Assembly (NCBI GenBank): GCA_030647415.1
Contig: JAUSKB010000011.1
Location: forward strand, 21,858-85,857
Source: a bacterium
Lineage (GTDB): Bacteria > Patescibacteriota > Minisyncoccia > UBA6257 > GWB1-50-10
Length of the DNA stretch: 64,000 bases
Direction of reading: 5' to 3'
The notes beneath the pieces were generated by a model. That model was not told where the DNA came from and searched no databases. It saw only the letters and a list, made by a program, of their open reading frames with translations. Positions within the stretch are counted from its first letter, which is position 1. Each line of letters begins with the position of its first letter. The translations under genes and the position numbers were made by a program. Below, in pieces: positions 1-63,016 of this stretch.

Positions 1-2554
1 CTAAAAACCCGTAGGATTGCGAACTCGCGCCGATATGATAATTCGCGCCGGGCGCCACATACATTTTGTAATATCCCTGGCTGTCCGTTTTCGCGTTTCC
101 GTTCCCCGGGCCTCCCTCCAGCCAGGCGTAGAGCGAAACACTCGCTAAACCGTTCCCCGCCGCGTCTTTCACATACCCCTCAATAAAATCAGACGGTGGC
201 GCGATAATTATGGTTGGCCCCTTGGGCGGATCAGTAATTTCATACGTGTCATCAACATCAACTTGCACCTCAACGGGGAAAGGCATATTTTCTCCGCCCA
301 CTCCTATTTTCCAGACCCCTTTTGAAACATTGAGCGTGAACGTACTGCTCGCCGTAACTTGCGCGCCGGTTCCTTTTCCGCCATTCGGTTGATAGGCAAA
401 CACCCATAATCTTCCGCGTTCTTCACTGCCAAATTGCCCGGATGGTTTTTGCACCGTGCCGACAATTCTATGTGTGGCCGAGGAAAACGTGAAATTTTTT
501 ACGGCGGTCAGCGTTGAAGACGATATGGTTGCTAACTGCGAATCAGGGTCGGTAAACGCGGTTGAAACCGTAATCCCGCCGGATGACGATGGCGGTATAT
601 GCGCCTCAATTCTATATGTTCCGTTTATCGGCACCCCAACGGCATAATTTGCGATACAATCGCCTCCGGTGGTAAAGAACGCCGGCTCAACTTGTTTAAA
701 GCCGGAATCCCCGGAATTAACGCTGTCGGGCATCGCGAATACAACAACTTGTTTATTTTGTCCGCCCGCCGCGCAGGACGCGCCCAACGTTACGGTGCCG
801 GAAATTTTCCGAGAAGTCGCCGGCATAAACAGATTTTGCGCCGCCGAAGTATTCACTTCTCTCCCCGCGGAATTCAAATGCGTTCCGGTTACATCATAGC
901 CCCAGGTATATCCCATTGAAGAAACACCCGTTATTGAAAATGTATCGGTGCCGGCATTGTACGTCATAAAGCCATCACCGACTGAATAGACCGTCATACC
1001 ACTCATTCCTCCGATTACAATACGAATGTTTGTGTTATCCCCGTCCGTCATCGGCGTTGACGTGCCCGACGAATAATACACCTTCGCGGTATACGCGCCC
1101 GCGATGTCGAAGAACGTGTTCGGTCCCATATCATTCATCACGCTTCCCGCAAGAACGTTGACGGGGCCTCCCTGCGCTCCCGCCGGCACTTTTACCACAA
1201 TTGAAGTATTGGACCAACTTCCGCCGGTATAATTCGCCTCAATGGGAGGAAGCGGTCCTGTTTGCTGGCTAAACCCGCCGGAAAAGAAAACCTTGTGATT
1301 GGCATCGCCAATAGTCCCCCCGCCCAGCGTACCGAAATTCGTTCCCGTAATCGTAACGGTTGAGCTTACCGCCCCCGATTGCGGACTTATGCTCGTAATA
1401 CTGGGAAGCGTAAGCGCCTGCACCGGCATACTTGAACTTGAGTAGGCGGTAAGTTTATTATTTGCCCCGCCCAGATCCGTAATCGTCGTGGAGGTGGGGA
1501 CAGAAAAGGAAGCGGTTCCAGACAATGCAAGTCCGCGAATGGTTATCTTCGTTCCGGAAAAATCTACAAACGGAAGGCCCATGCCTCCGCACGTAAGCGC
1601 CGCTCCGTTCACAATATAATTCGGCGTACAGTTCATCGCCTGCATCCCGTCAACATTTTCACTTAAGTTCAAAATAATTCTGTCGGTAAACGCCGTGGCG
1701 GAAGTTATAAACGGCGCCGCGTCCGCCGCAATCGTCACCATATTTGATACATTGCCCGCCTGGTCGTTTACTTGCACATCCACGCTTGTATAGGTGGTAG
1801 TATTAATCGCGAATGGCGCAAATTGACCGGATGGTCCCAACGTCGCTTGCCCTAACAGTGTCGTGCTGGCAGACACATACGCCTTGACTATGCTTCCATT
1901 CGTACCAATGGAAGCGCTCCCCATTGGCGCGAGTTGATTATTCCCAAGCAGAAAATATCCGGCCAAAATATTCGCCGGAGAAACCGCGTCTATGGAAATC
2001 ACCGCTGTTGACGTCGCGTTTATGGTCGGCGAAACACCGCTGGTGGCAACGCTGCTCGTCGCAACCGAAAGCACAAATTTATGCGTATCCGAATTTAATC
2101 CGCTTGCTGTTTTAAACGCGACGAGAAGCACGCTTGGCGTTGACGTTGAGAGCGCTACGGGAACTTTCAATGCAAGTGTCGTTGTAAATGGTCCTGCACC
2201 AGTCCATGAAGGAGTGGTGGACGCTTCCAAAAATCCGCTGGAAGCGCTGTATAAAGAAATACCCGAATTCGTGCTCGTTCCAAGCGCCGCAAGGTCGCTC
2301 GTTAAAAATCCGGTACTCGTCGCATCCGCGACAGAAATTGTAATCGCGGCAAGCGATTCACCTGCATTGCCGGTCAAAGAAATTTGTATGGCCGAGGTTG
2401 TCGCGCTTCCTCCCATTACCCACACTGGTCCTCCCAGTAAGTTTGTCGCGTTCCCAGAAACCGCAGCGCGAACCGTCACCAGATACGCGGAAGCGAAAGA
2501 AACGACTGCAACGACCGATACTACGAGGAACGCAATTTTATATAATTTTTTCAT
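1..2554 (-). CDS. Large secreted surface protein, partial (3' end runs off the window start). It is Ser/Thr/Gly-rich with IPT/TIG-like Ig repeats.
   Basis: On the minus strand an ATG at 2554-2552 opens MKKLYKIAFLVVSVVAVVSFASA (signal peptide), followed by repeats such as ITGTNFG. No in-frame stop occurs before position 1. The long + strand ORFs over it (1992..2627, 599..919) read as antisense shadows. The gene is absent from the ORF track because it is truncated. Confidence 0.55.
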   Translation of the reverse strand, partial: MKKLYKIAFLVVSVVAVVSFASAYLVTVRAAVSGNATNLLGGPVWVMGGSATTSAIQISLTGNAGESLAAITISVADATSTGFLTSDLAALGTSTNSGISLYSASSGFLEASTTPSWTGAGPFTTTLALKVPVALSTSTPSVLLVAFKTASGLNSDTHKFVLSVATSSVATSGVSPTINATSTAVISIDAVSPANILAGYFLLGNNQLAPMGSASIGTNGSIVKAYVSASTTLLGQATLGPSGQFAPFAINTTTYTSVDVQVNDQAGNVSNMVTIAADAAPFITSATAFTDRIILNLSENVDGMQAMNCTPNYIVNGAALTCGGMGLPFVDFSGTKITIRGLALSGTASFSVPTSTTITDLGGANNKLTAYSSSSMPVQALTLPSITSISPQSGAVSSTVTITGTNFGTLGGGTIGDANHKVFFSGGFSQQTGPLPPIEANYTGGSWSNTSIVVKVPAGAQGGPVNVLAGSVMNDMGPNTFFDIAGAYTAKVYYSSGTSTPMTDGDNTNIRIVIGGMSGMTVYSVGDGFMTYNAGTDTFSITGVSSMGYTWGYDVTGTHLNSAGREVNTSAAQNLFMPATSRKISGTVTLGASCAAGGQNKQVVVFAMPDSVNSGDSGFKQVEPAFFTTGGDCIANYAVGVPINGTYRIEAHIPPSSSGGITVSTAFTDPDSQLATISSSTLTAVKNFTFSSATHRIVGTVQKPSGQFGSEERGRLWVFAYQPNGGKGTGAQVTASSTFTLNVSKGVWKIGVGGENMPFPVEVQVDVDDTYEITDPPKGPTIIIAPPSDFIEGYVKDAAGNGLASVSLYAWLEGGPGNGNAKTDSQGYYKMYVAPGANYHIGASSQSYGFL

Positions 2555-2668
2555 CCCATTAGAAATAAACAAGCATAACCCAATTGACCAGAAAGGGCCT
2601 CGTATTCAAATGCTTTGTTGTTCATAAAAATTGATTGCATGTTTATTTCTAACGGGATGCATCCCTAC

Positions 2669-3823
2669 CTACAGAAGTCCATTTAGTTTCGCGCGGGTTT
2701 TCGGTCCCACAAAACCATAGCCGGAATCGCCCGGCTTCGCGATATTGTATTTCTCCTGGAAGGCCTTCACCGCGCTTTCAGTCAAGGCGCCGAAATATCC
2801 GGTCGCGGACACATTCAAGAGACCTTCGTTCTTCAGTATGTTCTGAAGCGCTGTCACGTCTGCTCCCTTCGAGCCTGCGCCTAATGGCCGGTTGAAAGCC
2901 GTGCGGGGAGCGGCGGCGGGAGACGATGGCGTCGTGGCGGGCGCCGGAGCAGGCACGGAGATGGGCGCGGACGGAATAATGTTTTCCGCAATCTTCGTCC
3001 GGGTAAGGGGTCCGAGATACCCGGTGGCCGGAAGTCCAATGCTCGCTTGGTATCGCGCCAGAGCCGCCCGGGTAGCATTCCCGAATAGATTTGTTTCGTG
3101 ACCTGGGGACCCCGCGCCGCCTGCCGCCACCGGAAAACCGTTGCTGTTTAAGAATGTTTGAAGTTGCCGCACATCTTCACCGTGCGAATTAAACTGTAAA
3201 TTGCGTGAAAAAGACGCTCCACCGCCCGCCGCGGTTGAAGGAGCCGCTCCTTGTTGCGTACCTGCTTTGTTTTGTAGGACCTGCAATTGAGCGAGCAACG
3301 CGCTCAATTGGTTTTGCGCCGAAGTGCTGGTACTGGCGCTGGTACTGGCGGGGGTGGCAACGGAAGTTGTGGTAGCGGCAGTCGGCGCTACATACGTACC
3401 GCCGCCTCCCCCGCCGCCGCTGACATTGACCGTAGCTGCTGATGAAACCGTGATGGTATAGGCAAAGCTTGCCACCGTCGAAGAAGCGCTATTTGCATAG
3501 CAGGCAATCGCTTTAATGGTCGCCGATGAGCCCACCGAGATTGCGCTGGAGTATGTCGTGCCGGTTGAAGGGCAGGCCGGCGCGCTGCCGTCGGTAGTGT
3601 ACCGGATGCTGGTCTCGCCGGTGGCGTCCAAGGTAACGCTCTGGGCAGAGGTGTAACTGCCCGCCGCGGGACTCGCGGTCGGCGCCGCCACTACCGTCCC
3701 CTCCACGGGACAATTCACGCCGGTGCACAGCGAACCGGTTATTTCAGACGCAAGAACAGGAAGCGCCGCAAGGAAACCAACCGCACATATGAGTAATGTT
3801 TTTGAGTTCACTATCCTATTCAT
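2669..3823 (-). CDS. Secreted peptidoglycan-binding protein. It has a signal peptide, a CHB_HEX_C/Fn3-like domain (IRYTTDGSAP), a coiled-coil (LSALLAQLQVLQ), and two PG_binding_1 domains.
   Basis: Two copies of the motif G.DV..LQ..L...G......G.FG..T..A...FQ (GEDVRQLQTFLNSNGF...ATRAALARYQ and GADVTALQNILKNEGL...TESAVKAFQ). The N-terminus is hydrophobic. Confidence 0.75.
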   Translation of the reverse strand: MNRIVNSKTLLICAVGFLAALPVLASEITGSLCTGVNCPVEGTVVAAPTASPAAGSYTSAQSVTLDATGETSIRYTTDGSAPACPSTGTTYSSAISVGSSATIKAIACYANSASSTVASFAYTITVSSAATVNVSGGGGGGGTYVAPTAATTTSVATPASTSASTSTSAQNQLSALLAQLQVLQNKAGTQQGAAPSTAAGGGASFSRNLQFNSHGEDVRQLQTFLNSNGFPVAAGGAGSPGHETNLFGNATRAALARYQASIGLPATGYLGPLTRTKIAENIIPSAPISVPAPAPATTPSSPAAAPRTAFNRPLGAGSKGADVTALQNILKNEGLLNVSATGYFGALTESAVKAFQEKYNIAKPGDSGYGFVGPKTRAKLNGLL

Positions 3824-3833
3824 TTTTAATTAC

Positions 3834-6800
3834 CTATTGCGACTGTATCCCGTAGCTCGTGGAATACGATCCGCCCGCCGAACCGGTCGGCACTTTCGCT
3901 TCCACCACTATCTGAATCTGGCGGCCGGCGGTATTCGCGTCCAAGTCAGCGTTCAATGTCATCGCGCTGGGATACGTATTTGCCGCGGTGATGGTGATTG
4001 GCGAGCTTGAGGTCGCGTTTGAGGACTGCGCCGAGTAGAAGCGGATGTTGCTTGCCGCGGCAATGGTGTTTGAACCGCTTATCCAATCCGCGAATTTCAT
4101 CGTCGTGCTCGTCTCGCCCGTCGGCACCGTCACGCTGAACACCCAGCTCCACCCGCTTGCATACGTGTCGTTGGCGGTGGCAAAGGTGCTTGAGGCGGAA
4201 ATTCCCGTTACCGCGAGCGTGACCGACTCCGCAGTCGTGGTGAATTCCTGACTGGCTTTGGTGGTGTACGCGGTTACAGTGTTACCCGCGGCATCTTTGG
4301 CTCCCGTTACCCACAAATAGTATTGCGTGCTGTTCGCCAGATTCGCTATAGGGTCAATCGTCACTATGGTGCGCGCGTCATTCATAGAGTAGGAGGCGCT
4401 AACGACACTGTCACCACTGTACAAGCGAAGCTGGACTGTGTTGGTATTCACCGTATTCGCATCCATTGCTTCACTGAAAGTTACTGTCGGTGAGGCGGTA
4501 ATCGCGGTTGTCGTCGCGCCGTCTACGGGCGACTGTGCGGAGACGGTCGGCGCGGTGGTGTCAGTTGCCGCCGTGGTAAATGCGCTGGTTGAACTCGCGC
4601 CGTAGGCAGTCGCGAGCGCATTCCCCGTAGCGTCCTGAACACTGGTTGAAGCGTAGAGATAGTACGAGGTCGTTGCGGTTAGTGAGGAAAGCGGGGCAAT
4701 AATCACTCGCTTGCCGCCGTTCCCCAGGGAAACCGTAGCGGTCACCACGGAATCATCCGAGGACTTGCGAAGCTGCGCCGTATTGGAATTGACCGAAGAA
4801 ACCTTGAGTTCTTCGGAAAATTCAATGTACGGCTGTATTGTGGCGACAACGCTGGTAGAAGCATTTGTCGGATATTGGCTAGAGACGGTCGGCGCGGTGG
4901 TATCGGACCCTATTGTCGTGAATGTCTGGTCACCAGATGTTCCTGTATTACCGGATGCGTCGCTTGAAAGTACGCGGAAGTGGTAGAGGGTGCTTGCAAT
5001 AAGCCCGGTGAGACCCCGCGAATGAGACGTGGTTGACGTAGTCGATACTGTCGAAGATCCGTAGCTTGAGGTCGTGCCATACTGGATTGTAGATGAAGCG
5101 CTCGTTTCGCTCGTCGTCCATGCTATTGACACGCTTGAGCTGGTAATAGAGCTTGCCTGGATGTTTGAGATAGTGGGGGCGGTGGTATCGGCGGAGGCGG
5201 ATACGGTTACGCTTGTTGAGCTGGTAATAGTTGCGTCCGCATAATCACGAGCAGTAATTGTTACGGTTTGCGCCGTGTTGAGTGTTACGCCACTCGTGAA
5301 TGTCTTGGTCCCGGCATCACCGGATACGAACGGATAGGACTCCGGGCTAAGATCGTACGGTGCGGTTGCGGACGCCGAGATAAATACCACACCCGTGTAC
5401 ACGGTTCCATTTACGCCACTCGCGGTATTTCCACTAGTATCTTTTGCCGTAACCGTAAGATTAAACGCTGTTCCCGCCGTCGGCGTCGCCGTTGATGGGG
5501 TGACGGTGTAGGTGGATGCGGCGGCGTGTCGTACCGTCACACTCGTGGAAGTTCCTGTCAGGGTTGCGTCATTCACCGTAATGGCGCCTAACACTTCGGC
5601 TCTCGTCAGCGTAAAGGTTGCAAGAGAAGCCACGCCGCTTGAGAATGCGGCTTGAACGGTTGAACTCGCGGGAATGGTGGGGGCGGTCCCATTCGGCGAT
5701 GTGTGCGTGCTTAACGCAGTACTGCTTGCATCCAGGAAATTATATGTCTTCCCGGTCGCGCTATATCCAGTGTCGGTAATATCACCCGCATTTGCCGCGG
5801 TAAGCGTCATGGTATCCGCCGAACCAGCCGTCGGCGTAGATGTCGCGAGCGTAACCAAGAATTTGGTGGCCACCACATTCGAGACCGTGGAACTCGCGGT
5901 GCTTGACGCGCTATTAAAGTTATTTGTTCCTGCCGCGTCATCGGTAAAGCTCAAGACGAAGGCCTGTTGGTCGGCGGTTGCGGTATACAGGATCGTGGAG
6001 AAGGTGGAGACGCCGTTCGAGGCGGTGGAGGTCGTCGTGCCAGAGAGAGTACCAGCGCCGCTATAGACCGCGGCAGTAACCACATCGGTGTTGGCCAAAG
6101 CATCAAGCGTATTCTGCGCGTCAACGAATCGTATCACCGGCTGGGTCATCGAGACGCCGGAAATGGAGGAGGTCGGATTGGTGTAGACGATAACCTTGGT
6201 GGCGACAACGTCCGAGGTGACGGCGTTTGCATTGACAGTTGCGAGATTTCCCTCCGCGCCACCCGCAACATCATCCGCAGTAAGGGTGAATGCTTCCTGG
6301 TCAGCGGAGGCGGTGTAAATCAAGTCATCGCTAGTAGCAAAATTAGCGACACCGGCGACGGCGGCCTCTGTGGCATTCGCCAGGGTGCCGGTAGACGCTT
6401 CCGTCAGAGTAATCACCTCAACGAAATCAGTGTCAGTCGCGCCAGCTGCGTTTCTGGCTGTTACCACTGGCTGGGTCACGAGGGCGATGCCGGAGGTGGC
6501 GGAGGCCGGTTGCGTGGTAAAGGCAAGCACGGTGGCAATAACGTTTGACAATGTTGAACTCGCGGTGCTTGATGCGCTATTGAAGTTATTCGTGCCTGCC
6601 GCGTCATCAGCAAAACGTAGGACAAAGGCGCTTTGGTCAGTAGTTGAGGAGTAGATGAGGCCGGAGAAGGTGGCGACGCCGTTCGAGGCAGATGAGGTGG
6701 TGTTGCCCGACACCGTTCCTCCACCGCTTAGAACTTCTGCCGTCACCACATCAGCGTTCGCGAACGTGTCAAGCGCGTCAGCCGCGTTCACAAACCTGAT

Positions 6801-8720
6801 GACGGGCTGGGTCATGGAGACGCCGGAAACCGTGGAGGTCGGATTGGTGTAGACAATGGTCTTGGTGGCGATAACGTTTGACAATGTTGAACTCGCGGTG
6901 CTTGATGCGCTATTGAAGTTGTTCGTGCCTGCCACGTCATCGGTAAAGCTCAAGACGAAGGCGCTTTGGTCAGTAGTTGAGGAGTAGATAAGGCCGGAGA
7001 AGGTGGAGACGCCGTTCGAGGCGGTAGAGGTCGTCGTGCCAGAGAGAGTACCAGCGCCGCTATAGACCGCGGCCGTAACCACGTCAGTGTTGACCGCCGC
7101 ATCCAGCGTGTTCTGCGCGTTAACGAATCGAATGACGGGCTGGGTCATGGAGACGCCGGAAACCGTGGAGGTCGGATTGGTGAAGACGATAACCTTGGTG
7201 GCGACAACGTCCGAGGTGAGGGCGTTTGCATTGACAGCCGCAAGGTCGCCTTCGGCGCCACCAGCAACATCATCCGCAGCAAGGGTAAACGCTTCCTGGT
7301 CAACCGAAGCGGTGTACGCAAGACCGGAGAAAGTGGCGACACCAGAAACCGCGCTTGTGGTCGCATTCGCCAGGGTGCCGGTAGACGCTTCCGTCAGAGT
7401 AATCACCTCAACGAAATCAGTGTCAGTCGCGCCAGCTGCGTTTCTGGCTGTTACCACTGGCTGGGTGACCAACGCGATGCCGGAGGTGGCGGAGGCCGGT
7501 TGCGTGGTAAAGGCAAGCACGGTGGCAACAACGTTTGACAATGTTGAACTCGCGTCCACCGGGGCGCCATTAAAGTTATTCGTGCCTGCCGCGTCATCGG
7601 TGAAACGCAGGACAAAGGCGCTTTGGTCGGTTGATGAGGAGTAAAGAAGACCAGAGAAGGTGGAGACGCCGTTCGAGGCGGTAGAGGTCGTCGCGCCGGA
7701 CAATGATCCACTGCCGCTCTGGACTGAAACGGTTACCACGTCAGTGTTGACCGCGGCATCCAGCGTGTTCTGGGCGTCAACGAATCGAATGACGGGCTGG
7801 GTCATAGAGATGCCGGAAACGGTGGAGGTCGGATTAGTGAAGACGATAACCTTGGTGGCGACAACGTTCGAGGTGACGGCGTTGGCGGTAGTTGTAGCAA
7901 GGTTCGTACCCACACCAGCATCATCATCAGCGGTCAAGGTGAATGCCTCTTGGTCAACCGAGGCGGTGTAAATCAAGCTAGCGCCAGTAGCAAAATTAGC
8001 AACACCGGCGACGGCGGCCTCTGTGGCATTCGCCAGCGTGCCGGTAGCGGTTTCAGTCAGAGTAATAAGTTCTGTGAAATTGGTGTCAGTGTTTCCATAT
8101 GTGTCACGCGCCGTTACGACTGGTTGAGTCACCAGTGCGATGCCGGAGGTGGCAGAGGCCGGTTGGGTGGTGAAAACAATTTGCGTAGCAGTCCCCGGCG
8201 TAAGCGTCACGCCCGCAATTCCGCTCTGGGCAGTTTCACCTGATGCGTTACTTGTAATTGTGAAAGTTCCTGTCGCTCCAGAAGTTGTCGCGTTCGTGAT
8301 ACCAGTCGTTATTCGAAAAGTCGTCCCTGTCCCCGTGCCGAGATCATAACCACTCGTTAAGGTCGCTTTAATGGTGCTACTCGCCGAACTACCGATAACA
8401 CTATCTATGCTACGGTCCACACCGTCCACGCTGATAAAGCCGGAGGTTACACACCCGCTATTACAAATGGCTGAAGCCCCAAGCGATCCATTTGTGATTG
8501 CGTAGCCAGCGGGAAACGTAACGGTAAGAGTCGTCGCGGTTGATGTTGTATTTGTATCAAACGAAACATTGTAATCAGCGTTCGCGGCGCCTACCACCAA
8601 ATCAGCCGCAGCAGTCCCAGCCACCGAACCACCGCTCACTGTCGCGTGAGCATTCGGAACCAAAACAAAACCACCGATTAAAACGAACGCGACTACTAAA
8701 AGAAAACTAGATTTTTTCAT
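3834..8720 (-). CDS. Giant (about 1628 aa) Ser/Thr/Ala-rich secreted surface protein, S-layer-like. It carries tandem Ig-like repeats, Fn3 and Big-like domains.
   Basis: The track ORF is 3834..8843. The internal ATG at 8720 gives MKKSSFLLVVAFVLIGGFVLVPNAHA, a signal peptide. Two repeat types of about 100 aa alternate (FTTQPASATSGIALVTQPVVTAR... and KVIVFTNPTSTVSGISMTQPVIRFV...). The C-terminal domains include an Fn3 (SSVSIAWTTSE...LYHFRVLSSDASGN) and a Big-like domain. Confidence 0.8.
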   Translation of the reverse strand: MKKSSFLLVVAFVLIGGFVLVPNAHATVSGGSVAGTAAADLVVGAANADYNVSFDTNTTSTATTLTVTFPAGYAITNGSLGASAICNSGCVTSGFISVDGVDRSIDSVIGSSASSTIKATLTSGYDLGTGTGTTFRITTGITNATTSGATGTFTITSNASGETAQSGIAGVTLTPGTATQIVFTTQPASATSGIALVTQPVVTARDTYGNTDTNFTELITLTETATGTLANATEAAVAGVANFATGASLIYTASVDQEAFTLTADDDAGVGTNLATTTANAVTSNVVATKVIVFTNPTSTVSGISMTQPVIRFVDAQNTLDAAVNTDVVTVSVQSGSGSLSGATTSTASNGVSTFSGLLYSSSTDQSAFVLRFTDDAAGTNNFNGAPVDASSTLSNVVATVLAFTTQPASATSGIALVTQPVVTARNAAGATDTDFVEVITLTEASTGTLANATTSAVSGVATFSGLAYTASVDQEAFTLAADDVAGGAEGDLAAVNANALTSDVVATKVIVFTNPTSTVSGVSMTQPVIRFVNAQNTLDAAVNTDVVTAAVYSGAGTLSGTTTSTASNGVSTFSGLIYSSTTDQSAFVLSFTDDVAGTNNFNSASSTASSTLSNVIATKTIVYTNPTSTVSGVSMTQPVIRFVNAADALDTFANADVVTAEVLSGGGTVSGNTTSSASNGVATFSGLIYSSTTDQSAFVLRFADDAAGTNNFNSASSTASSTLSNVIATVLAFTTQPASATSGIALVTQPVVTARNAAGATDTDFVEVITLTEASTGTLANATEAAVAGVANFATSDDLIYTASADQEAFTLTADDVAGGAEGNLATVNANAVTSDVVATKVIVYTNPTSSISGVSMTQPVIRFVDAQNTLDALANTDVVTAAVYSGAGTLSGTTTSTASNGVSTFSTILYTATADQQAFVLSFTDDAAGTNNFNSASSTASSTVSNVVATKFLVTLATSTPTAGSADTMTLTAANAGDITDTGYSATGKTYNFLDASSTALSTHTSPNGTAPTIPASSTVQAAFSSGVASLATFTLTRAEVLGAITVNDATLTGTSTSVTVRHAAASTYTVTPSTATPTAGTAFNLTVTAKDTSGNTASGVNGTVYTGVVFISASATAPYDLSPESYPFVSGDAGTKTFTSGVTLNTAQTVTITARDYADATITSSTSVTVSASADTTAPTISNIQASSITSSSVSIAWTTSETSASSTIQYGTTSSYGSSTVSTTSTTSHSRGLTGLIASTLYHFRVLSSDASGNTGTSGDQTFTTIGSDTTAPTVSSQYPTNASTSVVATIQPYIEFSEELKVSSVNSNTAQLRKSSDDSVVTATVSLGNGGKRVIIAPLSSLTATTSYYLYASTSVQDATGNALATAYGASSTSAFTTAATDTTAPTVSAQSPVDGATTTAITASPTVTFSEAMDANTVNTNTVQLRLYSGDSVVSASYSMNDARTIVTIDPIANLANSTQYYLWVTGAKDAAGNTVTAYTTKASQEFTTTAESVTLAVTGISASSTFATANDTYASGWSWVFSVTVPTGETSTTMKFADWISGSNTIAAASNIRFYSAQSSNATSSSPITITAANTYPSAMTLNADLDANTAGRQIQIVVEAKVPTGSAGGSYSTSYGIQSQ
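5850..8200. repeat. Near-identical intragenic tandem DNA repeats inside the giant surface-protein gene, with a period of about 1 kb built from alternating 660-bp and 340-bp sub-units.
   Basis: A 60-mer (aacgaatcgaatgacgggctgggtcatggagacgccggaaaccgtggaggtcggattggtg) recurs at about 6130, 6790, 7130 and 7790. The shadow ORFs 6370..6654 and 7087..7644 encode near-identical peptides. Confidence 0.6.
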
Positions 8721-16736: not shown

Positions 16737-16801
16737 GACATTCCAATGTTCCGCGGAACATTGGAATGTCATACTGTGCCTGTTACCGTGTCTGTTACCG
16801 T
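16737..16801. promoter_or_regulatory. A 34-bp perfect palindrome (GACATTCCAATGTTCCG|CGGAACATTGGAATGTC) followed by a tandem 11-mer CTGTTACCGTG x2. It sits upstream of and overlapping the start of the oxidoreductase fusion gene.
   Basis: Perfect reverse-complement symmetry was verified base by base. The direct repeat lies at 16779-89 and 16791-801. Confidence 0.5.
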
Positions 16802-18857: not shown

Positions 18858-18886
18858 TTGCATAACTTTATAAAGTTTGATACTAT
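18858..18886 (+). promoter_or_regulatory. Promoter TTGCAT-N17-TACTAT for the Fic gene, with a leaderless or short-leader start.
   Basis: The hexamers were read directly. The -10 element overlaps the ATG at 18885, and the next ATG is at 18900. Confidence 0.4.
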
Positions 18887-18899
18887 GGCGATATCACGC

Positions 18900-19847
18900 A
18901 TGAAGCAAGCCAAACCCATGACCACTCGTCAAAAACTGGAAATCATCCGAAAGATGCTGGGACTGACCCAGACCAAGCTAGCCCAAAGGTTTGGGGTGTC
19001 CTTCGCGGCCTTCAACAGCTGGTGGACCGGTAAATCGAACCCGCGGCCGAAGATGCAGGCCGCCATCAACGAGCTGTTCCTGGAGGTGACCGGGCAGAAG
19101 ATAATCCCCGCCGACCAGCTCACCGCCAAGAAGCAGGCGTTGTCGCGGAAATCGGGAGAGCATGAAAACGTCGTGGCCGAAATTCTGGACAATCCGGATG
19201 TCCGCGACCAGTTCATATTGAAACTCACCTACCACAGCAACCGCATCGAAGGCAGTACGCTCACCGAGCCGGACACAGCAGCGATCCTTTTTGACAATGT
19301 CGCCTTGCCGAACAAAAGCATCATCGAACAGCTTGAAGCAAAAAACCACCAGACTGCCCTGAACTATCTTTTCGACTCTGTGGCCACGAAGGGGAAAATC
19401 AACGGGGCGCTGGTTCTCAAACTCCACGGCATTCTCATGAACGGCATAAAGTCGGATGCCGGCGCGTACCGCAACCATGGCGTGCGAATCACCGGTGTCA
19501 ATCTGCCGACCGCAAATTATGCAAGCGTACCGAAGTTGATGGCCGAAGCGATGCGCAAGACTGCCAAAAAAACGAAAGATGTCGTCGCACTCGTCGCCGC
19601 GGTGCACGGCACGTTTGAGCAGATCCATCCATTCTCCGACGGCAACGGTCGCACGGGCCGCCTGCTTATGGACGCCATGTTGCTTCAGGCAAATTTCGCC
19701 CCGCCCATCATCCGCCAAGAGCAAAAACGGCTCTACTACATGTATCTCTACAAAGCCCAGACCAAGGAGGATTACAGCCGGCTGGAGGATTTCCTCTGCG
19801 ATGCAATCGTGGACGGATTCAAAATCCTCGAGCGAGCTGATTCGTAG
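18900..19847 (+). CDS. Fic/Doc-family protein (putative AMPylase) with an N-terminal XRE-type HTH.
   Basis: The Fic core is HPFSDGNGRTGR. A class-II inhibitory motif SxxxEG (SNRIEG) precedes the core. The HTH is LGLTQTKLAQRFGVSFAAFNSWWTG. The track start at 18858 is TTG, and the true start is probably the ATG at 18885 or 18900. Confidence 0.7.
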   Translation: MKQAKPMTTRQKLEIIRKMLGLTQTKLAQRFGVSFAAFNSWWTGKSNPRPKMQAAINELFLEVTGQKIIPADQLTAKKQALSRKSGEHENVVAEILDNPDVRDQFILKLTYHSNRIEGSTLTEPDTAAILFDNVALPNKSIIEQLEAKNHQTALNYLFDSVATKGKINGALVLKLHGILMNGIKSDAGAYRNHGVRITGVNLPTANYASVPKLMAEAMRKTAKKTKDVVALVAAVHGTFEQIHPFSDGNGRTGRLLMDAMLLQANFAPPIIRQEQKRLYYMYLYKAQTKEDYSRLEDFLCDAIVDGFKILERADS

Positions 19848-20011
19848 AAAAAGGTCTCGCGTGATCTCTGTCAGCGAACAACTTGAACTGTTCATGGCAC
19901 TGTTCTTGTGGTTGTTGGGATACCCCCTAACTTCCCCTAGCCCGCAACAGTAACTCCCCCTAGCCCCCTCTTATGAATAAGAGGGGATATGCATTTCCCT
20001 CCTCCCCTTAC

Positions 20012-20407
20012 CTATAAGGGGAGGTTGGGAGGGGTTAAGTCCGCGATTGCTTCGCGGACTTTTTCATACACACCCTCCAGATTCCGCAACACGTCATTGT
20101 TCCAAAATCGAATCACCATGATGTTTTGCTCCCGAAGGTATGCGGTCCGAACCGCGTCAGAATCGCTATCAATGTGCTGGCTCCCATCAACCTCTATCGC
20201 CAATCGAAACGCCGGACAGTAAAAATCCAGAATGTACGCACCGATGCCGTACTGCCTGAAAAACTTCACTCCGTTCATACGCTTGCCACGAAGCACACCC
20301 CACAGCTTCCGTTCCGCCTCAGTCTGCGACCTGCGCAACGACCTGCGCCGTTCCTTTAGGTCCTCACTGTTATAGAGGTGGGGCATAATTCCAGTAACCC
20401 CTCTCAT
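20012..20407 (-). CDS. DUF559 / Vsr-like endonuclease-domain protein.
   Basis: FYCPAFRLAIEVDGSQH...VIRFWNNDV matches the DUF559 signature. Family A palindromic repeats flank it on both sides. Confidence 0.7.
   Translation of the reverse strand: MRGVTGIMPHLYNSEDLKERRRSLRRSQTEAERKLWGVLRGKRMNGVKFFRQYGIGAYILDFYCPAFRLAIEVDGSQHIDSDSDAVRTAYLREQNIMVIRFWNNDVLRNLEGVYEKVREAIADLTPPNLPL
20039..20064 (+). terminator. Candidate terminator for the Fic transcript. It lies inside the 3' coding end of the convergent DUF559 gene.
   Basis: GTCCGCG-attgctt-CGCGGAC followed by TTTTT. Confidence 0.35.
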
Positions 20408-20456
20408 TCTCCCCTTATGCTAAAGGGGGTACCCTCCTAACTCCCCCAACCCCCTC

Positions 20457-21599
20457 TTATTCTAAGAGGGGGGCGCCCCGGCGAAGGCGGACGATCTCCC
20501 GGTCGATGAGGAGCGGGTACCAGAGACCGTGCAGTACGTGGTACCGCCACCCCGTCGGACCGTCGAGAAACCCGCCGCGCAGAATGAACACATACCCGAA
20601 GTAGAGGACAGCGCGGAGAAAGAGCGGCAGTCGGTCGTACGCACCCCGCCTCCCCGCCCGCAGTCTCTGTTCGGTGTCCGCACCAACGGCAGCTGTAACC
20701 CCCCCTAGCCCCCCCTTATCGGTAAGGGGGGGGAGCGGACCTAACCCCACCTTATGAGCAAGGGGGGGGATTGGACCTAACCCCACCGTATCTGTAAGGG
20801 GGAGGATCGGGCCTAGCCCAACCGTATGAGCAAGAGAAGTGAGCGGAATCGACCTCCCCTTATCATAAGGGGAGGCAGGAGGGGTTACCCCTCTCCTCTG
20901 CCAATATTCTTTTGCTTTTAAGACGGCATACCGCCGGTGCTTCGCTTTCCAATCCGCGAGGCCGCGACGGTCGTCGTGCACAAGGTCGTGCTCCAGCTTT
21001 CCCGTCGCGCCGTCCACCGCGAAATGCTCGTCCATGAGTTGCCCCTCGCACCGCGCCACCGACCGCCGCATGAGCCGCAGAATCCAGACGGGATAGTACC
21101 CGCCGTGGCGGATCCACCGCCCATCCCACATGAACCGGCGTTTGAGATAGTAGCCGTTTATAGGTGATGTAGGCGCGTGCTCATCTTGTAAATTAACCTC
21201 GATACCCCTCATAACCCCTCCCAACCTCCCCTTATGATAAGGGGAGGCAGGAGGAGTTACTTCCTCGGCGTTTGTCGTTGGTTGTTTATTGTTTATTATT
21301 TGCCCAACCTCCTCCTTCAGCTCCTCCGTCGGATACTCGTCAGCGTCCACGAAGAGCACCCACTCGTTTCGGACCGGAAGCTCCCGGAGCGCCCAGTTCC
21401 GCTGCTCCACGAACCCGGCGAACGTATGCTCCACAACCGTTGCACCCGCCTCTCGTGCAATCGCCGCCGTCCGATCAATGGAGCCCGAGTCGAGAACCAC
21501 GACCTCGTCCGCCCACCCCACGACGTGCTCAAGGCACCGGGCGATGTTCGCCTCCTCGTCCCTGGTGAGCACAACAACTGCGACCGGCGCCACTTTCAT
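20457..21599 (-). CDS. GT2 glycosyltransferase (WaaE/KdtX-like) carrying in-frame palindromic-repeat insertions.
   Basis: The N-terminal GT-A fold is VVVLTRDEEANIARCL...VLDSGSIDRT...FVDADE. The C-terminal region has W.RHGGYYP..LRLMRR and GGFLDGPTGW. The repeat-encoded inserts are PPASPYHKGRLGGV and a PLTD/VGLGP tandem of about 60 aa. Confidence 0.75.
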   Translation of the reverse strand: MKVAPVAVVVLTRDEEANIARCLEHVVGWADEVVVLDSGSIDRTAAIAREAGATVVEHTFAGFVEQRNWALRELPVRNEWVLFVDADEYPTEELKEEVGQIINNKQPTTNAEEVTPPASPYHKGRLGGVMRGIEVNLQDEHAPTSPINGYYLKRRFMWDGRWIRHGGYYPVWILRLMRRSVARCEGQLMDEHFAVDGATGKLEHDLVHDDRRGLADWKAKHRRYAVLKAKEYWQRRGVTPPASPYDKGRSIPLTSLAHTVGLGPILPLTDTVGLGPIPPLAHKVGLGPLPPLTDKGGLGGVTAAVGADTEQRLRAGRRGAYDRLPLFLRAVLYFGYVFILRGGFLDGPTGWRYHVLHGLWYPLLIDREIVRLRRGAPLLE

Positions 21600-56302: not shown

Positions 56303-58813
56303 TTAGAGTTTTCTGATTATCTCCCAATTCCCCTTCTCGGCGAGGTCGATCAACACATCCATGTCGTCCGCGATACTCGGGAACGTGCCCTTCATGAATT
56401 TTGCGAGTGCCGCGAAATGCTCTTGGTCCTTTTGGTCAGCATAACGCTTGAGTGCCAGCGTGTAGGTCTCCTGGTCGAGCGCGACAGGCAATGCGCCGCG
56501 CATGCTCCGGTCGATGAGTAATATAAGTTGGTCGTTCTCGCCCAAGCTCGCATAGAGCATGCCGAGTGTCCGAAAATCGGTGTTCATGAGCGTGTTGAGA
56601 CGGGGATTGAGGCGTTCCACCTCGGCGAGCTCCCGCTTCGCCTCATCCTTTTGCCCGCCCGCGTCGAGCATGAGCCCGAGGTGGAAGTGGGCGCGCGCGA
56701 CACGGGTATCAAGCGCGACCCCGCGACGGGCGATGGTAATCGACTCGTCCACCCTCCCCTGTCCGGCGAGATTGAATGCAAGTAGGTAGAAAAGCTCTTG
56801 GCGGGTCGGCGAGAGCTCGAGCGCCTTCCGCAGGTACAGCTCCGCCTTCGCGTAGTACGACTCATCGTCGCGCGCCATCGCGTGGAGCATCGTCGCGTAC
56901 CGGATGTAGTAGCGCACATCGTAGACCGGCTCCCGATCAATCATCTCCTTGGCCCCGGCGAGCAGGAGGTCCCCGACCGCCTTGAACTTCGGGTTCTGCC
57001 GATACGGGTCGTACAGGAAGTACTGATCCTGGTAGATGTTGTCGATACCGACGCCTCGAATATCCTTTTGCGCATAGGTTGTCGGGTACATGCCATCCCG
57101 GAGCCGCGCCGTTACCTTCTTGATATCACCGAGGCCCGGCGACTCCTTGTACGCTCGCGCCTGCGCGTAGGGCAGGGCATTCACGAAGTAGATGCCGCCG
57201 ATGGCGGCAACAAACAACAAACAACAAACAACAAACAACGCATACCGACGGAGCGGGGATGCCGGCGCGGCAGAAACTGACGATAGCGATGCAGGCTCGC
57301 ACCCGCCTGCCCACTTCGCCGGAGCTTCAGCGAGGCGAGCTGGTGAGGTGGGGCGTGCAGCCCACGCAACAAACACCGCAAACGTCAGGTATGAGACTAC
57401 TTGGTCGAAGAGGACGAGATTTTGGACGACATACGAGACGAGGAAGCCGAGGAGAACCGCTCGGACCGCGCCGGCATTCCGCCGCCAGATCAATGCGCCG
57501 AGCGCGACGAGGAGCGAGACGTATGCCACCGTGCCAACGACCCCCTGCGTGACGAGGAGGTCAAACACCTTGCTGTGCGCGCGGTCGAGCCATGTCTCGC
57601 CGTAGTACGCGAATGCGGGGTCGTAATGGCGCTCATACGCGGTGATGTAGTGTTCTGGTCCCCACCCGAGTACCGGCTTTTCGAGGAATGCCTTCCAGCT
57701 GACTCGCCAAGTAATAAGCCGCGTCTCCGTTGAGGCGTCCGACAGGGACTCCTCCGCGGTTACCGCGAGGCGGTTCAATCCGGGAATCGACTGCCACAGC
57801 GGCGCCGTCCGCGTTGTCCAAAAGACGCCCGCGAATACGAAAAGTGCAGCAAGAAGCATGCCCGCGCGAATTCGCCGTCGCTGAACCGAAATATCACCAC
57901 GGTCGCCCCTCTGGAAAAGAGTGAGCACGAGCGCCACGACACCCCCCACCGCAAGGCCGAGCATCGCGCCGCGGGTGCCGGTGAGGAACACAGTGAGCGC
58001 GCCGAGGCCGATCGTCGCGAACGCAAACCACCGCCAGGCGCGCACCAAAAAGAAAAGGGGCAGAGGCGAGATGAGGCGAGACCTTAAAGGAATTCCAAGG
58101 TCTCGCCTCGGGACTGATCTCGCCTCTGTCTCTTTTCTTTTATCTTTTCCCCACACCGACATCCACGCGAACACCATTACAAAGAGGGCGTACGTCGCGA
58201 GGAAGGCGGGGTTCCCGATGAACGATTCGGCGCGATCCTGCGCATGGCGGGCAAATGGAACCCAGGTGATACCGAAGTGCTGGAAAAGACCGTAGAGAAA
58301 AACGACGAACCCGACAAGGACCGTGAGCTTGAGATACCGGCTCCAGTCGCGCGGTCGGAAAAGGGCAAGGAGGAGGCCGCCGAACGTAATGACGTGCATG
58401 ATGCCGATAACCCCCTCCCCTCGCTCGATGTCGCCCCAGAAGGCGCGATAGGGGTCGAGAGAAAACGCCATCGAGATGACAAGGGAAAAAAGAAAAAGGA
58501 TAAGGGAAATACCAAGGGGACTCTTAATCGCTTTCCACGCCTCGGCTCGGGACGGAAGCCCGATGAATCCCGAGGCGAGACGAGGCGAGACCTTAAGGGA
58601 ATTCCAAGGTCTCGCCTCGGGGTTGGTCTCGCCTCGCACCAACGTCCACGCGACAGAAAGCGCGACACAGGCGAGCGCGAGCTCAACGAGCGTCCGGAAG
58701 AGGGCAAGCTTCGGGAAGGCGTAGGGGAAAAAGACGCTCGAATCGATGACAAGCGGCACGAGCACGGTCGCGGTGAGAAACCATCGAGCGAGCGTGAGGA
58801 GACGGCGGGGCAT
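56303..58813 (-). CDS. O-antigen ligase / Wzy_C-family membrane protein fused to C-terminal TPR repeats. It carries two in-frame family B repeat insertions.
   Basis: ATG at 58813 (MPRRLLTLARWFLTATVLV). The Wzy_C region is LTGTRGAMLGLAVGG. The C-terminal 300 aa are TPR-like (YYAKAELYLRKALELSP...). The track ORF extends to 59074 through repeat sequence. Confidence 0.7.
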   Translation of the reverse strand: MPRRLLTLARWFLTATVLVPLVIDSSVFFPYAFPKLALFRTLVELALACVALSVAWTLVRGETNPEARPWNSLKVSPRLASGFIGLPSRAEAWKAIKSPLGISLILFLFSLVISMAFSLDPYRAFWGDIERGEGVIGIMHVITFGGLLLALFRPRDWSRYLKLTVLVGFVVFLYGLFQHFGITWVPFARHAQDRAESFIGNPAFLATYALFVMVFAWMSVWGKDKRKETEARSVPRRDLGIPLRSRLISPLPLFFLVRAWRWFAFATIGLGALTVFLTGTRGAMLGLAVGGVVALVLTLFQRGDRGDISVQRRRIRAGMLLAALFVFAGVFWTTRTAPLWQSIPGLNRLAVTAEESLSDASTETRLITWRVSWKAFLEKPVLGWGPEHYITAYERHYDPAFAYYGETWLDRAHSKVFDLLVTQGVVGTVAYVSLLVALGALIWRRNAGAVRAVLLGFLVSYVVQNLVLFDQVVSYLTFAVFVAWAARPTSPARLAEAPAKWAGGCEPASLSSVSAAPASPLRRYALFVVCCLLFVAAIGGIYFVNALPYAQARAYKESPGLGDIKKVTARLRDGMYPTTYAQKDIRGVGIDNIYQDQYFLYDPYRQNPKFKAVGDLLLAGAKEMIDREPVYDVRYYIRYATMLHAMARDDESYYAKAELYLRKALELSPTRQELFYLLAFNLAGQGRVDESITIARRGVALDTRVARAHFHLGLMLDAGGQKDEAKRELAEVERLNPRLNTLMNTDFRTLGMLYASLGENDQLILLIDRSMRGALPVALDQETYTLALKRYADQKDQEHFAALAKFMKGTFPSIADDMDVLIDLAEKGNWEIIRKL

Positions 58814-58978
58814 GGGGTCAATTATGGAGGAAAAAGGATAAAAGAAAAGAGATGGGAAAGACCAGAGGCGAGAGACCAGAGACGAGAGACGGGTAACACC
58901 GAATACGGGCCCAGAGGCGAGACGAGGCGAGACCTTAAGGGAATTCCAAGGTCTCGCCTCGGGACCGGTCTCGCCTCT
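58062..58978. repeat. Family B palindromic element of about 60 bp, (GAGACGAG)GCGAGACCTTAAGGGAATTCCAAGGTCTCGCCTCGGG..GGTCTCGCCTC, in three copies.
   Basis: Copies at 58062-58126 and 58571-58636 lie inside the CDS, encoding ...EARPWNSLKVSPRLASG... and ...RRDLGIPLRSRLISP.... The copy at 58913-58978 lies in the 5' region. Each has 14-bp inverted arms around GGAATTCC. Confidence 0.7.
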
Positions 58979-59222
58979 CCCGCGACACACCCCGAAGCAC
59001 GTTCGATATATTATTCTCCAAAATACCTGATTTATTCCTCGGCAGCGCCTTCGGCTTACGTATTCAAAACACAAACTATACCCTGAACGTGCAACGGGGT
59101 TCCCGTGGCTGAAACCTCGCCCCGCCAGCCGGCGGGGCTCGGGAAGCCACCGGAAAACTCACCCCCCTCCGACCTAGGTCGGAGGGGGGATGCCGATGCA
59201 GTCAGTACCGGAAGCAGAAGAA

Positions 59223-62621: not shown

Positions 62622-63016
62622 TATGTTGTTTGTTTTAGTTATTTTTGACTCACTCCTTTTTTTCCCATCTGGCAGAGTCGTCCAGACGGAATATATCGAC
62701 CTTTTTTCAGGAATCACCGCACGCGCTCGTCGTCGCAACTTCCCTGGAGTGAGGATCGGGAGTGCTGGAGCGCACACGATGGGCAGTATCAAAAGAAAAA
62801 GCCTCGCTTCGGGTGCTCCGAACGAGGCGAACAATGCCGCATGACGGCAAAACCCTGCCCCATCTGGCATCGGGGCATCGGGTCGCCGAAAAACGAGCTT
62901 CGCCTCACACGAAGCAGATGATACCTACCGCTCAAAAGTTCAGTCGTTTACAGTATTTTCAGCGGGTATCACTAGAGAAAACGACCGAATGACCGCATTG
63001 TTACGGAGTAATCGCT

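Follow-up and report, generated by a model that had tools for sequence, protein, structure and literature searches.

Short palindromic repeats in bacteria fall into a few described groups. Repetitive extragenic palindromic (REP) sequences and REPINs are accompanied by RAYT (TnpA-REP) genes (PMC3116915, PMC5581495, PMC8266576). Rickettsia palindromic elements (RPEs; Ogata 2000, as reviewed in PMC10969869 and PMC3184786) are 100–150 bp in size, are restricted to Rickettsia and have no associated gene. CGTC-tagged REPs, widespread in Alphaproteobacteria, 'apparently lack a dedicated transposase' (Di Nocera 2013, PMC3733652). Finally, Vsr-like (EDxHD) homing endonucleases, for example I-Bth0305I, have been described (PMC2677866, PMC3239194). 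Here we describe a locus that is compared with each of these groups: a cluster of 38-nt hairpin modules surrounding, and extending beyond, a gene for a small DUF559 endonuclease on contig JAUSKB010000011.1 (assembly GCA_030647415.1). The 64,000-nt stretch of this contig that was analysed is termed the window, and all coordinates given without a locus label refer to it. The modules lie on both sides of the DUF559 gene and also in frame inside the adjacent glycosyltransferase (GT2) gene, and the same modules accompany DUF559 genes in other phyla.

The repeat unit is a 38-nt module composed of a conserved box, TAACyCCyCC, a variable spacer of 3–4 nt and a 10-bp hairpin, the 5′ arm of which is always C-rich and the 3′ arm always G-rich. 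As resolved by the repeat finder, the box is located 3–4 nt 5′ of the stem, or its complement, GGrGGrGTTA, is located 3′ of the stem, or both are present. The stems alternate between CCTCCCCTTA and CCCCTCTTA, with loops of 2 to 4 nt. A hairpin scan of the window yielded six perfect 10-bp-stem hairpins (19965–86, 20001–24, 20450–72, 20709–32, 20853–75 and 21225–47) and no other hairpins of the module kind outside a cluster at 19923–21260. Matches to the inner stem motifs exceed chance expectation: CCTTA-N2-8-TAAGG occurs four times in the window (0.10 expected) and CTCTTA-N2-8-TAAGAG twice (0.01 expected). To avoid circularity, we trained a covariance model, R1, on 45 modules from other genomes, none of them from the window, and ran it unfiltered on the whole window. 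R1 detects eight full-length modules (E ≤ 6e-11, with best E-values down to 1e-16), all within 19950–21260, and degenerate copies at 19927–47, 20740–70 and 20777–807, giving a total of about 11 modules within 1.3 kb; outside 19923–21260, the best match in the rest of the 64 kb reaches only E = 0.043.

An initial annotation, made from the letters of the window, had proposed multicopy palindromes here, and these are present, as eight full and at least three degenerate modules at 19923–21260. It had taken the repeated unit to be a hairpin of 20–25 bp; the hairpins exist, and the unit is larger, as it includes the conserved box. Its literal pattern with a 3-nt loop, CCCCTTATNNNATAAGGGG, is too strict, giving one match even when two mismatches are allowed. 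Within the window the family is not dispersed, the modules being confined to the neighbourhood of the DUF559 gene. Its placement of modules on both sides of that gene is confirmed from the coordinates and the open reading frames (ORFs).

The DUF559 gene (20012–20386, minus strand) encodes a Vsr-like PD-(D/E)XK endonuclease of 124 aa (Pfam PF04480, E = 2e-33) and is present in one copy in the window. The ORF as listed runs to 20407 (131 aa), reading into the upstream module; an exact database look-up of this 131-aa ORF returned no match, the database using the 124-aa start, and the 124-aa protein is identical to database protein P0121. Its closest Protein Data Bank (PDB) entry is 3HRL (E = 2.5e-30), 3R3P being a marginal match (E = 0.0025), and NCBIfam PRK09767 matches with E = 1.4e-26, below cutoff. 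All of 32 DUF559 homologues retain the candidate catalytic residues D54, E65, D67 and H71. The gene is intergenic and free-standing, located between GT2 and a GFO/IDH/MocA gene, and no intron was found using Rfam. True Vsr enzymes nick T:G mismatches and are linked to a cytosine methyltransferase; no methyltransferase was noted among the ORFs and Pfam matches adjoining the DUF559 gene of the window. PADLOC gave only a weak match to a methyl-directed restriction-enzyme model, and no evidence for a defence system was found.

Four full modules bracket this gene. Two precede its start, both reading hairpin then G-box in gene orientation. The first (20394–20431, plus strand; R1 35.9 bits, E = 6.2e-11) is directly upstream and reads, in gene orientation, hairpin, Shine–Dalgarno (SD)-like G-box GAGAGGGGTTAC, 7 nt and ATG. 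The second (20437–20473, plus; 44.2 bits, E = 5.7e-14) contains the GT2 stop codon, TAA, in its loop (20457–59). The 3′ end of the DUF559 gene is itself formed by a module (19999–20038, minus; 47.8 bits, E = 2.8e-15), of which the box is translated as ..LTPPNLPL in the ORF and the loop contains the stop codon, TAG (20012–14). Thus, the stop codons of DUF559 and GT2 both lie inside hairpin loops. The second module downstream (19950–19989, plus; 41.0 bits, E = 8.9e-13) consists of box GTAACTCCCCC and hairpin CCCCTCTTAT-GA-ATAAGAGGGG, with a perfect 10-bp stem. Further out, a degenerate, box-only remnant (CCCCCTAACTTCCCCTAGCCC; 19923–19947, plus) belongs to direct-repeat family D5 and gives a weak R1 match (19927–47, E = 1.9). 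One hairpin arm had been likened in the initial annotation to an SD/anti-SD pair. The sequence resemblance holds, and the G-box directly before the DUF559 ATG may, judging from its sequence and position, serve as its ribosome-binding site; an anti-SD function is without support.

Rfam returned nothing at the gathering score in the window and only tRNAs in 20 loci. Weak matches to the anti-hemB family (29.6 bits versus a gathering score of 49.5) and to toxic-sRNA families were rejected, since they rest on a module hairpin together with an unrelated hairpin and T-run inside an ORF. The unrelated hairpin and T-run (AAGTCCGCGATTGCTTCGCGGACTTTTT; 20037–20066, plus) occupy the strand opposite the DUF559 ORF, within its 3′ end. 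Together with the adjoining module they are the source of the sub-threshold anti-hemB match, and they are not conserved in the related locus L002 (below). From its sequence, the element looks like an intrinsic terminator for plus-strand transcription from a neighbouring helix–turn–helix (HTH)-Fic gene (18858–19847, plus), which is located between the GFO/IDH/MocA gene and the DUF559 cluster.

The GT2 gene (20457–21599, minus; Pfam PF00535, E = 2.2e-14) encodes 380 aa, whereas its homologues are mostly 275–320 aa in length (991 database relatives). It hosts two in-frame insertions. Site 1 (21204–21266, minus; aa 112–132) is one double-boxed palindromic unit, GTAACTCCTCCTGCC-TCCCCTTATCATAAGGGGA-GGTTGGGAGGGGTTAT, read as EEVTPPASPYHKGRLGGVMRG. 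R1 detects it on both strands, as full modules at 21211–21249 (plus; 51.6 bits) and 21223–21260 (minus; 42.7 bits) that share a single hairpin. Beside this unit, a low-complexity (ACAAAC/TTGTTT)n tract at 21262–21300 encodes an NNKQPTTN-type peptide. Site 2 (20691–20891, minus; aa 237–303, 67 codons), delimited by R1 and the repeat finders, has a full module at each end (20695–20734, plus, and 20852–20888, minus, both detected by R1) and three degenerate 36-nt tandem units between them (20740–70, 20777–807 and 20812–47). Tandem Repeats Finder reports the array at 20704–20834, with a 36-nt period and 3.6 copies. Compared with the insertion-free gene of locus L086, the window gene is 114 nt longer at site 1 and 180 nt longer at site 2.

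Several results identify these segments as insertions. The site 2 segment is absent from 14/14 aligned homologues, and the 67-aa site 2 peptide is not a native domain, because an exhaustive search of 1.84 billion representative proteins gave only six weak matches and no family. In the AlphaFold model of GT2, the predicted local distance difference test (pLDDT) score falls below 50 exactly at aa 108–139 and 239–306 and is mostly above 85 elsewhere, which places the insertions in loops between folded elements; the model thus predicts that both are disordered. The initial annotation is therefore upheld in its account of GT2: repeats are in frame at two positions, the tandem array exists as 36-nt units at site 2, the GT2 motifs on either side of the insertions are intact, and alignment shows that most homologues lack the segments. 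At site 1, three Jorgensenbacteria homologues (P0003, P0005 and P0007) do carry the segment, in the form of 2–4 modules; these are variable-number copies of the same element rather than a native linker. More distant homologues carry none.

Close relatives of the locus allow the history of the modules to be followed. The order GT2, DUF559 and convergent GFO/IDH/MocA is common to the window relatives L002 and L085, both contigs of Candidatus Jorgensenbacteria metagenome-assembled genomes, and L083, a groundwater metagenome contig. In all three, modules are found on both sides of DUF559 (in L002, two upstream and five downstream), and every module in 21 kb of L002 is located within 1.3 kb around DUF559. 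The number of hairpin units at GT2 site 1 varies, with two in L002, four in L085 and three in P0003, and the left junction of this site, GTAACyCCTCCTGCC, is common to L002, L085 and the window. The GT2 gene of L083, the closest relative, has (ACAAAC)n tracts at both insertion sites (1296–1320 and 1640–1700) and, at site 1, a different palindrome, GGGAAGTCGGACTTCCC, twice. Two further relatives have no DUF559 gene at this position. In L086, GT2 and GFO overlap convergently, and in L100, a GT4 gene follows GT2; both loci are devoid of modules and of GT2 insertions. In a GT2 tree built from ungapped columns with 200 bootstraps, the window gene groups with P0002, P0004 and P0006 (181/200) and P0003 groups with P0005, P0007 and P0008 (198/200), and the DUF559-bearing genes are monophyletic in 0/200 bootstraps. 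Because they are never monophyletic, DUF559 must have been gained, or cleanly lost, at least twice. Modules inside the GT2 gene are gained or lost jointly with the nuclease gene. The position of the HTH-Fic gene also differs, being beyond GFO in L083 and upstream of GT2 in L086, which indicates local rearrangement of the locus among relatives.

The association extends well beyond these relatives. We collected 80 loci from species-representative genomes, chosen only by the DUF559 core motifs FWN[NH][DE]V and F[FV]RQY..G.Y. Nearly all of them have a hairpin, a G-box and the ATG on one side and a C-box and a hairpin on the other, giving a canonical order of hairpin, G-box, ATG, DUF559, stop, C-box and hairpin. 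The gene is thus framed by terminal inverted repeats of 35–70 nt that abut or overlap the start and stop codons; in R1 searches across loci, the upstream module ends at the start codon and the downstream module lies right after the DUF559 core. Perfect hairpins with a C-rich 5′ arm and a stem of at least 8 bp reach 9.0 per kb and 8.1 per kb in the two 100-nt flanks, versus about 0.12 per kb beyond 500 nt, an approximately 70-fold enrichment beside DUF559. Hairpins with a G-rich 5′ arm are almost absent (2 versus 41 C-rich ones far from the gene and 2 versus 165 near it). When the relatives' loci and the window are added to the 80, the inverted repeats flanking DUF559 outscore every one of the approximately 30 within-locus controls in 69/82 loci (median score 45 versus 16). 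In the module stem, 94% of cells are paired and six of the ten pairs show double changes, values that none of 500 shuffles reaches; the hairpin is maintained through compensatory changes. The association between gene and module is specific.

The modules also account for the ends of many DUF559 proteins. DUF559 homologues from Patescibacteria, Chloroflexi, Deltaproteobacteria and other groups often end in ..ITPPxLP(L/F)(S)KGE.., and some start with ..SPLxVRGxGGV; both termini are translated module. The variable residue of the tail corresponds to the spacer of the DNA module, which points to conservation at the level of DNA rather than peptide. Near-identical module sequences are found in Patescibacteria, Chloroflexi, Desulfobacterota and Nitrospirota-type contigs, and a GC-rich variant, CCCTCTCCC..GGGAGAGGG with GGGTGAGGGG, is found in GC-rich Proteobacteria. 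The distinction between left-end and right-end modules (TAACTCCCCC versus TAACCCCTCC) is a tendency only (9/14 versus 12/14) and is confounded by coding constraint. Two of the loci have additional features. In L014 (Candidatus Portnoybacteria; 2867–3489), the DUF559 cassette sits between two tRNA genes (2867–2938 and 3418–3489), and a separate double module is present at 2182–2258. In L016 (Desulfuromonadaceae; 2149–3673), tandem units of about 220 bp, each with two alternating module types, form an array that extends up to and past the DUF559 gene.

A reciprocal search, starting from the repeat, was made in metagenomes. The scan for TAACCCCTCCCNNCCTCCCCTTA yielded at least 120 stretches, with 132 matches among those listed. 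DUF559 is found within 1 kb of 20 of these 132 and, for listed matches flanked on both sides by 3 kb or more, within 3 kb of 6/22; the latter is far more than would be expected of a gene that occurs about once in a genome. The majority of metagenomic copies are dispersed, and they lie mostly between genes. Among the listed matches, 40 ORFs (60 aa or longer) terminate within or at a module, and DUF559 is the sole recurrent family among them, with five members, the rest being singletons. As DUF559 is the only gene that recurs beside modules across phyla, it is not the bystander that the initial annotation had made of it. Away from DUF559, modules occur as singletons, gene-less doublets (hairpin, G-box, 7–60 nt, C-box and hairpin), inside-out doublets and tandem arrays with a period of about 31–36 nt, and the copy number of an array differs between contigs that are 96% identical. 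Most modules are located just 3′ of genes, and in many cases the stop codon of the gene before them falls within the module. Long open frames are poor in modules, with 37/207 hairpins inside versus 59% of random positions. In-frame copies are nevertheless found in leucyl-tRNA synthetase (LeuRS; in the editing domain), two Mur ligases (MurD among them), an EPSP synthase–cytidylate kinase (AroA), PrmC, UvrC and an N6-methylase. This distribution is best explained if, inside genes, only those copies survive that are open, a multiple of three in length and situated in tolerant surface loops.

Cultured organisms show the same arrangement. On the complete 124-kb plasmid pAQ6 of Picosynechococcus PCC 7002, 22/22 boxed C-rich hairpins lie at 19.5–28.8 kb, a segment of 9.3 kb, where they surround a single DUF559 gene (21,037–21,402). 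Several of these modules are inside annotated DUF1156 and helicase-related genes adjoining DUF559, and the cyanobacterial variant of the module consists of TCCCCCGATTCGGGGG plus CTAGGGGGC. In Escherichia coli K-12, the DUF559 gene is ycjD, which has no assigned role, and its stop codon, TGA, is in the loop of CCCTCTCCCTGAAAGAGCGAGGGGG. The spacer between ycjD and fabI (L226, NC_000913.3 1351040–1351410) contains an approximately 70-nt partial copy of the 3′ end of ycjD, hairpin included, followed by a well-formed hairpin plus GGGTTAGGGTGAGGGG; this sequence suggests that gene end and module were duplicated together. The module in this spacer is of the GC-rich type, CCCTCTCCC..GGGAGAGGG plus GGGTGAGGGG. 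By BLAST, the 54-nt module beside ycjD occurs at a median of 16 places per genome and is found in 5426/5426 complete E. coli genomes. This 54-nt module is presumed to be the E. coli 'box C' repeat. Box C was reportedly first described by Bergler in 1992 as an intergenic repeat next to envM/fabI, and is reportedly listed in the K-12 genome paper. To our knowledge, box C has never been connected with ycjD or DUF559, or with in-frame insertions in other phyla.

On balance, we think it probable that the 38-nt modules constitute a widespread REP-like family with the approximately 120-aa DUF559 endonuclease as its specific partner, that is, a REP/RAYT-like pair with RPE-like coding insertions. From the association we infer mobilization by DUF559, for which the following mechanism is proposed. 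The nuclease would recognize box plus hairpin on extruded or single-stranded DNA and would nick or cut at the module. Host repair, recombination or template switching would then duplicate or transfer modules, preferentially near the gene, in cis. The logic would be that of the RAYT/REPIN pair, with a hydrolytic enzyme of another superfamily. The modules beside DUF559 probably also supply its ribosome-binding site, and RNA pairing between the 5′ and 3′ flanking modules could restrain its translation. In the window, about 11 modules have accumulated within the 1.3 kb around DUF559, including those in two permissive GT2 loops.

Several observations weigh against this partnership. A PD-(D/E)XK enzyme only hydrolyses DNA and cannot rejoin it, so that the copying has to be assigned to host functions. 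Identical DUF559 proteins were always in one genomic context across the samples examined, and hence nothing indicates that the gene has moved recently. Neither the two GT2 insertions nor the dispersed copies inspected, which are old and few, showed a consistent target-site duplication. About three quarters of the listed metagenomic modules have no DUF559 within 1–3 kb, on contigs that are short. When the spacer of a gene-less doublet in locus L012 was compared with the DUF559 termini of the same locus, to see whether the doublet is an internally deleted cassette, the score (20) was not significant relative to the shuffle mean (20.2). Finally, the modules could be kept for a host function, as 3′-end hairpins, with the gene simply inserting into them.

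The initial annotation had also called the repeats a REP- or MITE-like family (MITE, miniature inverted-repeat transposable element). A palindromic family of REP/MITE-like character is present, and the gene-less doublets and double-boxed units do have terminal inverted repeats around a short non-coding core, as in a MITE; membership of the MITE class is not established, because neither target-site duplications nor a classical transposase were found.

Among the alternatives, the one that survives best, although we consider it unlikely, is that DUF559 is a homing-type selfish gene. The modules would spread by other means, the nuclease would target the palindromic junction of inverted modules (G-box/C-box, for example GGGGTTA/TAACTCC), and the association would reflect insertion preference, the gene destroying its own site because it is inserted exactly in the box–box junction. 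In keeping with such insertion, the DUF559 ORF is fused to the boxes with 0–10 nt to spare, its ATG overlapping GTTATG in at least six loci, and at one conserved position some loci have the gene and others lack it. The presumptive empty target also exists, as an abutting G-box/C-box junction flanked by hairpins in L002 (11531–11605) and as the gene-less doublets with 7–60-nt spacers, and Vsr-fold homing endonucleases are known (PMC2677866, PMC3239194). However, homing leaves unexplained both the pile-up of modules within a few kb of the gene, including inside its neighbours, and the tandem arrays. Moreover, identical genes are single-copy in a fixed context, and no intron or intein context is present.

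A less likely explanation again is that the modules are cis-acting functional hairpins, that is, DNA or RNA structures selected as 3′-end stabilizers, terminators, protein-binding sites or silencers of a toxic nuclease mRNA. They would be non-mobile, would spread slowly by recombination or slippage, and would be linked to DUF559 through its tight regulation. Such roles have been ascribed to REPs (PMC3733652). The location of the hairpins, 170/207 of which are outside long ORFs when 59% of random positions are inside, fits this idea, as do the many copies that overlap the stop codon of the upstream gene and the SD-like G-box that abuts the ATG. In addition, in the predicted centroid RNA fold the two flanking modules, 5′ and 3′, pair with each other and enclose the entire DUF559 ORF (z = -4.05). 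Against this idea, the hairpins have no T-run after them and match no Rfam family at the gathering score, and there is no obvious regulatory reason for the copies within essential coding regions (LeuRS, MurD, UvrC and AroA). Copy number also differs between close strains, near-identical modules are found across Patescibacteria, Chloroflexi, Desulfobacterota and Nitrospirota-type contigs, and the loci that lack DUF559 are without modules. Finally, low-complexity linkers, chance palindromes or an assembly artefact, which might have been suspected from the variability of GT2 sites 1 and 2 in relatives and from the (ACAAAC)n tracts and different palindrome of L083, are refuted by the 2–4 motif matches where 0.01–0.1 are expected, by E-values as low as 1e-16 from R1, for which the training modules came from other genomes, by an identical GT2 that has the same hairpins in another assembly (L001), and by the occurrence of the same DNA module between genes and in other genes.

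The partnership of DUF559 with the modules can be cast more widely, in a form that we put forward tentatively, as a possibility rather than an expectation. Small DUF559 endonucleases, YcjD included, may be dedicated partners of pan-bacterial repeats built from a C-rich box and a hairpin, among them the repeat that we take to be box C and the PPLxxGG-type junk peptides of CPR (candidate phyla radiation) and cyanobacterial annotations. This would be a second nuclease–repeat symbiosis, independent of RAYT, based on a PD-(D/E)XK enzyme and host repair, acting mainly in cis and remodelling protein loops. If true, it would provide a function for DUF559, which is among the commonest uncharacterized nuclease families, would explain where one class of orphan palindromic repeats comes from, and would extend the REPIN/RAYT concept to a second enzyme superfamily. 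The modules explain one frequent cause of ORFs that are spurious or too long, and of unusual Pro/Gly-rich insertions in proteins from CPR bacteria, cyanobacteria and proteobacteria, and the fact that essential enzymes (LeuRS, Mur ligases and UvrC) tolerate insertions bears on the evolution of protein loops and on annotation quality. Because the same arrangement is present in E. coli K-12 and Picosynechococcus PCC 7002, the hypothesis is directly testable in genetically tractable organisms.

The window and its relatives contain other repeats and palindromes. Another palindromic repeat, about 68 nt long and unrelated to the module (GAGGCGAGAyGAGGCGAGACCTTAArGGAATTCCAAGGTCTCGCCTCGGG..GGTCTCGCCTC) is present at 58063–58130, 58571–58638 and 58914–58980. 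All three copies are inside a 923-aa ORF (56303–59074, minus), where two read ..PEARPWNSLKVSPRLASG.. and one ..EARSVPRRDLGIPLRSRLISPL..; the DUF559-linked family is thus not the only source of in-frame palindromic insertions in this genome. A perfect 13-bp-stem hairpin (CCCCCCTCCGACCTAGGTCGGAGGGGGG; 59162–59189) in the gap between the minus-strand ORFs 56303–59074 and 59223–62870 has a C-rich 5′ arm, has no TAAC box and is weakly matched by R1 (E about 3–5). A perfect 16-bp-stem palindrome (GACATTCCAATGTTCCGCGGAACATTGGAATGTC; 16737–16770) overlaps the start of the GFO/IDH/MocA ORF, and an unrelated long perfect palindrome (CTATTCTCCAATTCGCGCGAATTGGAGAATAG) occurs twice in L002 (14268–14299 and 14873–14908); these long palindromes may be operator sites. 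Finally, a 333-nt tandem duplication (2.0 copies, 83% identity) is located at 6531–7210.

In the open-access literature on DUF559, COG2852, Vsr with REP, and box C, we found no paper linking the gene with repeats, and as far as can be told the link between DUF559 and a repeat family is undescribed. The closest parallel is the REP/REPIN–RAYT system. As there, the repeats are short, GC-rich and palindromic, and one foot carries a conserved tag that is unpaired; they are mostly extragenic, 3′ of genes, and occur as singletons, inverted doublets and clusters; and the single-copy gene has a stable position and is flanked by inverted copies of its own repeat. By contrast, the tag of the module is an invariant TAA(C) followed by a C-run, whereas REP tags are GTAG or CGTC (PMC3733652); the partner is a hydrolase of about 120 aa with a PD-(D/E)XK (Vsr-like) fold, whereas RAYT is an HUH Y1 (IS200/IS605-like) transposase; and CPR and cyanobacterial modules, unlike REPs, are concentrated within a few kb of the gene. 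Because it has neither the GTAG/CGTC tags nor the RAYT enzyme, the module family is not a member of REP/RAYT, although the logic is alike.

The remaining systems each share one aspect of the locus. CGTC-tagged REPs are likewise an orphan class of tagged palindromes with some members inside genes; they have stems of 8–9 bp starting with A/T pairs, loops of 4–5 nt and CCA tails, whereas the modules have 10-bp C/T versus G/A stems and a separate 10-nt box. Homing endonucleases of the I-Bth0305I type have the fold superfamily in common with DUF559 and are small selfish nuclease genes, with hairpins noted upstream of free-standing ones; they set a precedent for this fold behaving selfishly. Unlike DUF559, they reside in group I introns or between split inteins, have extra DNA-binding domains and are not associated with a dispersed repeat family. 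Finally, RPEs are also palindromes in frame in unrelated housekeeping genes, adding a peptide where the protein fold tolerates it. The modules are set apart by description from RPE-1 to RPE-10 (PMC10969869), in that their unit is 38–52 nt, they occur in many phyla and they are linked to DUF559. The GT2 gene described here is, in this comparison, an RPE-like case in a CPR bacterium.

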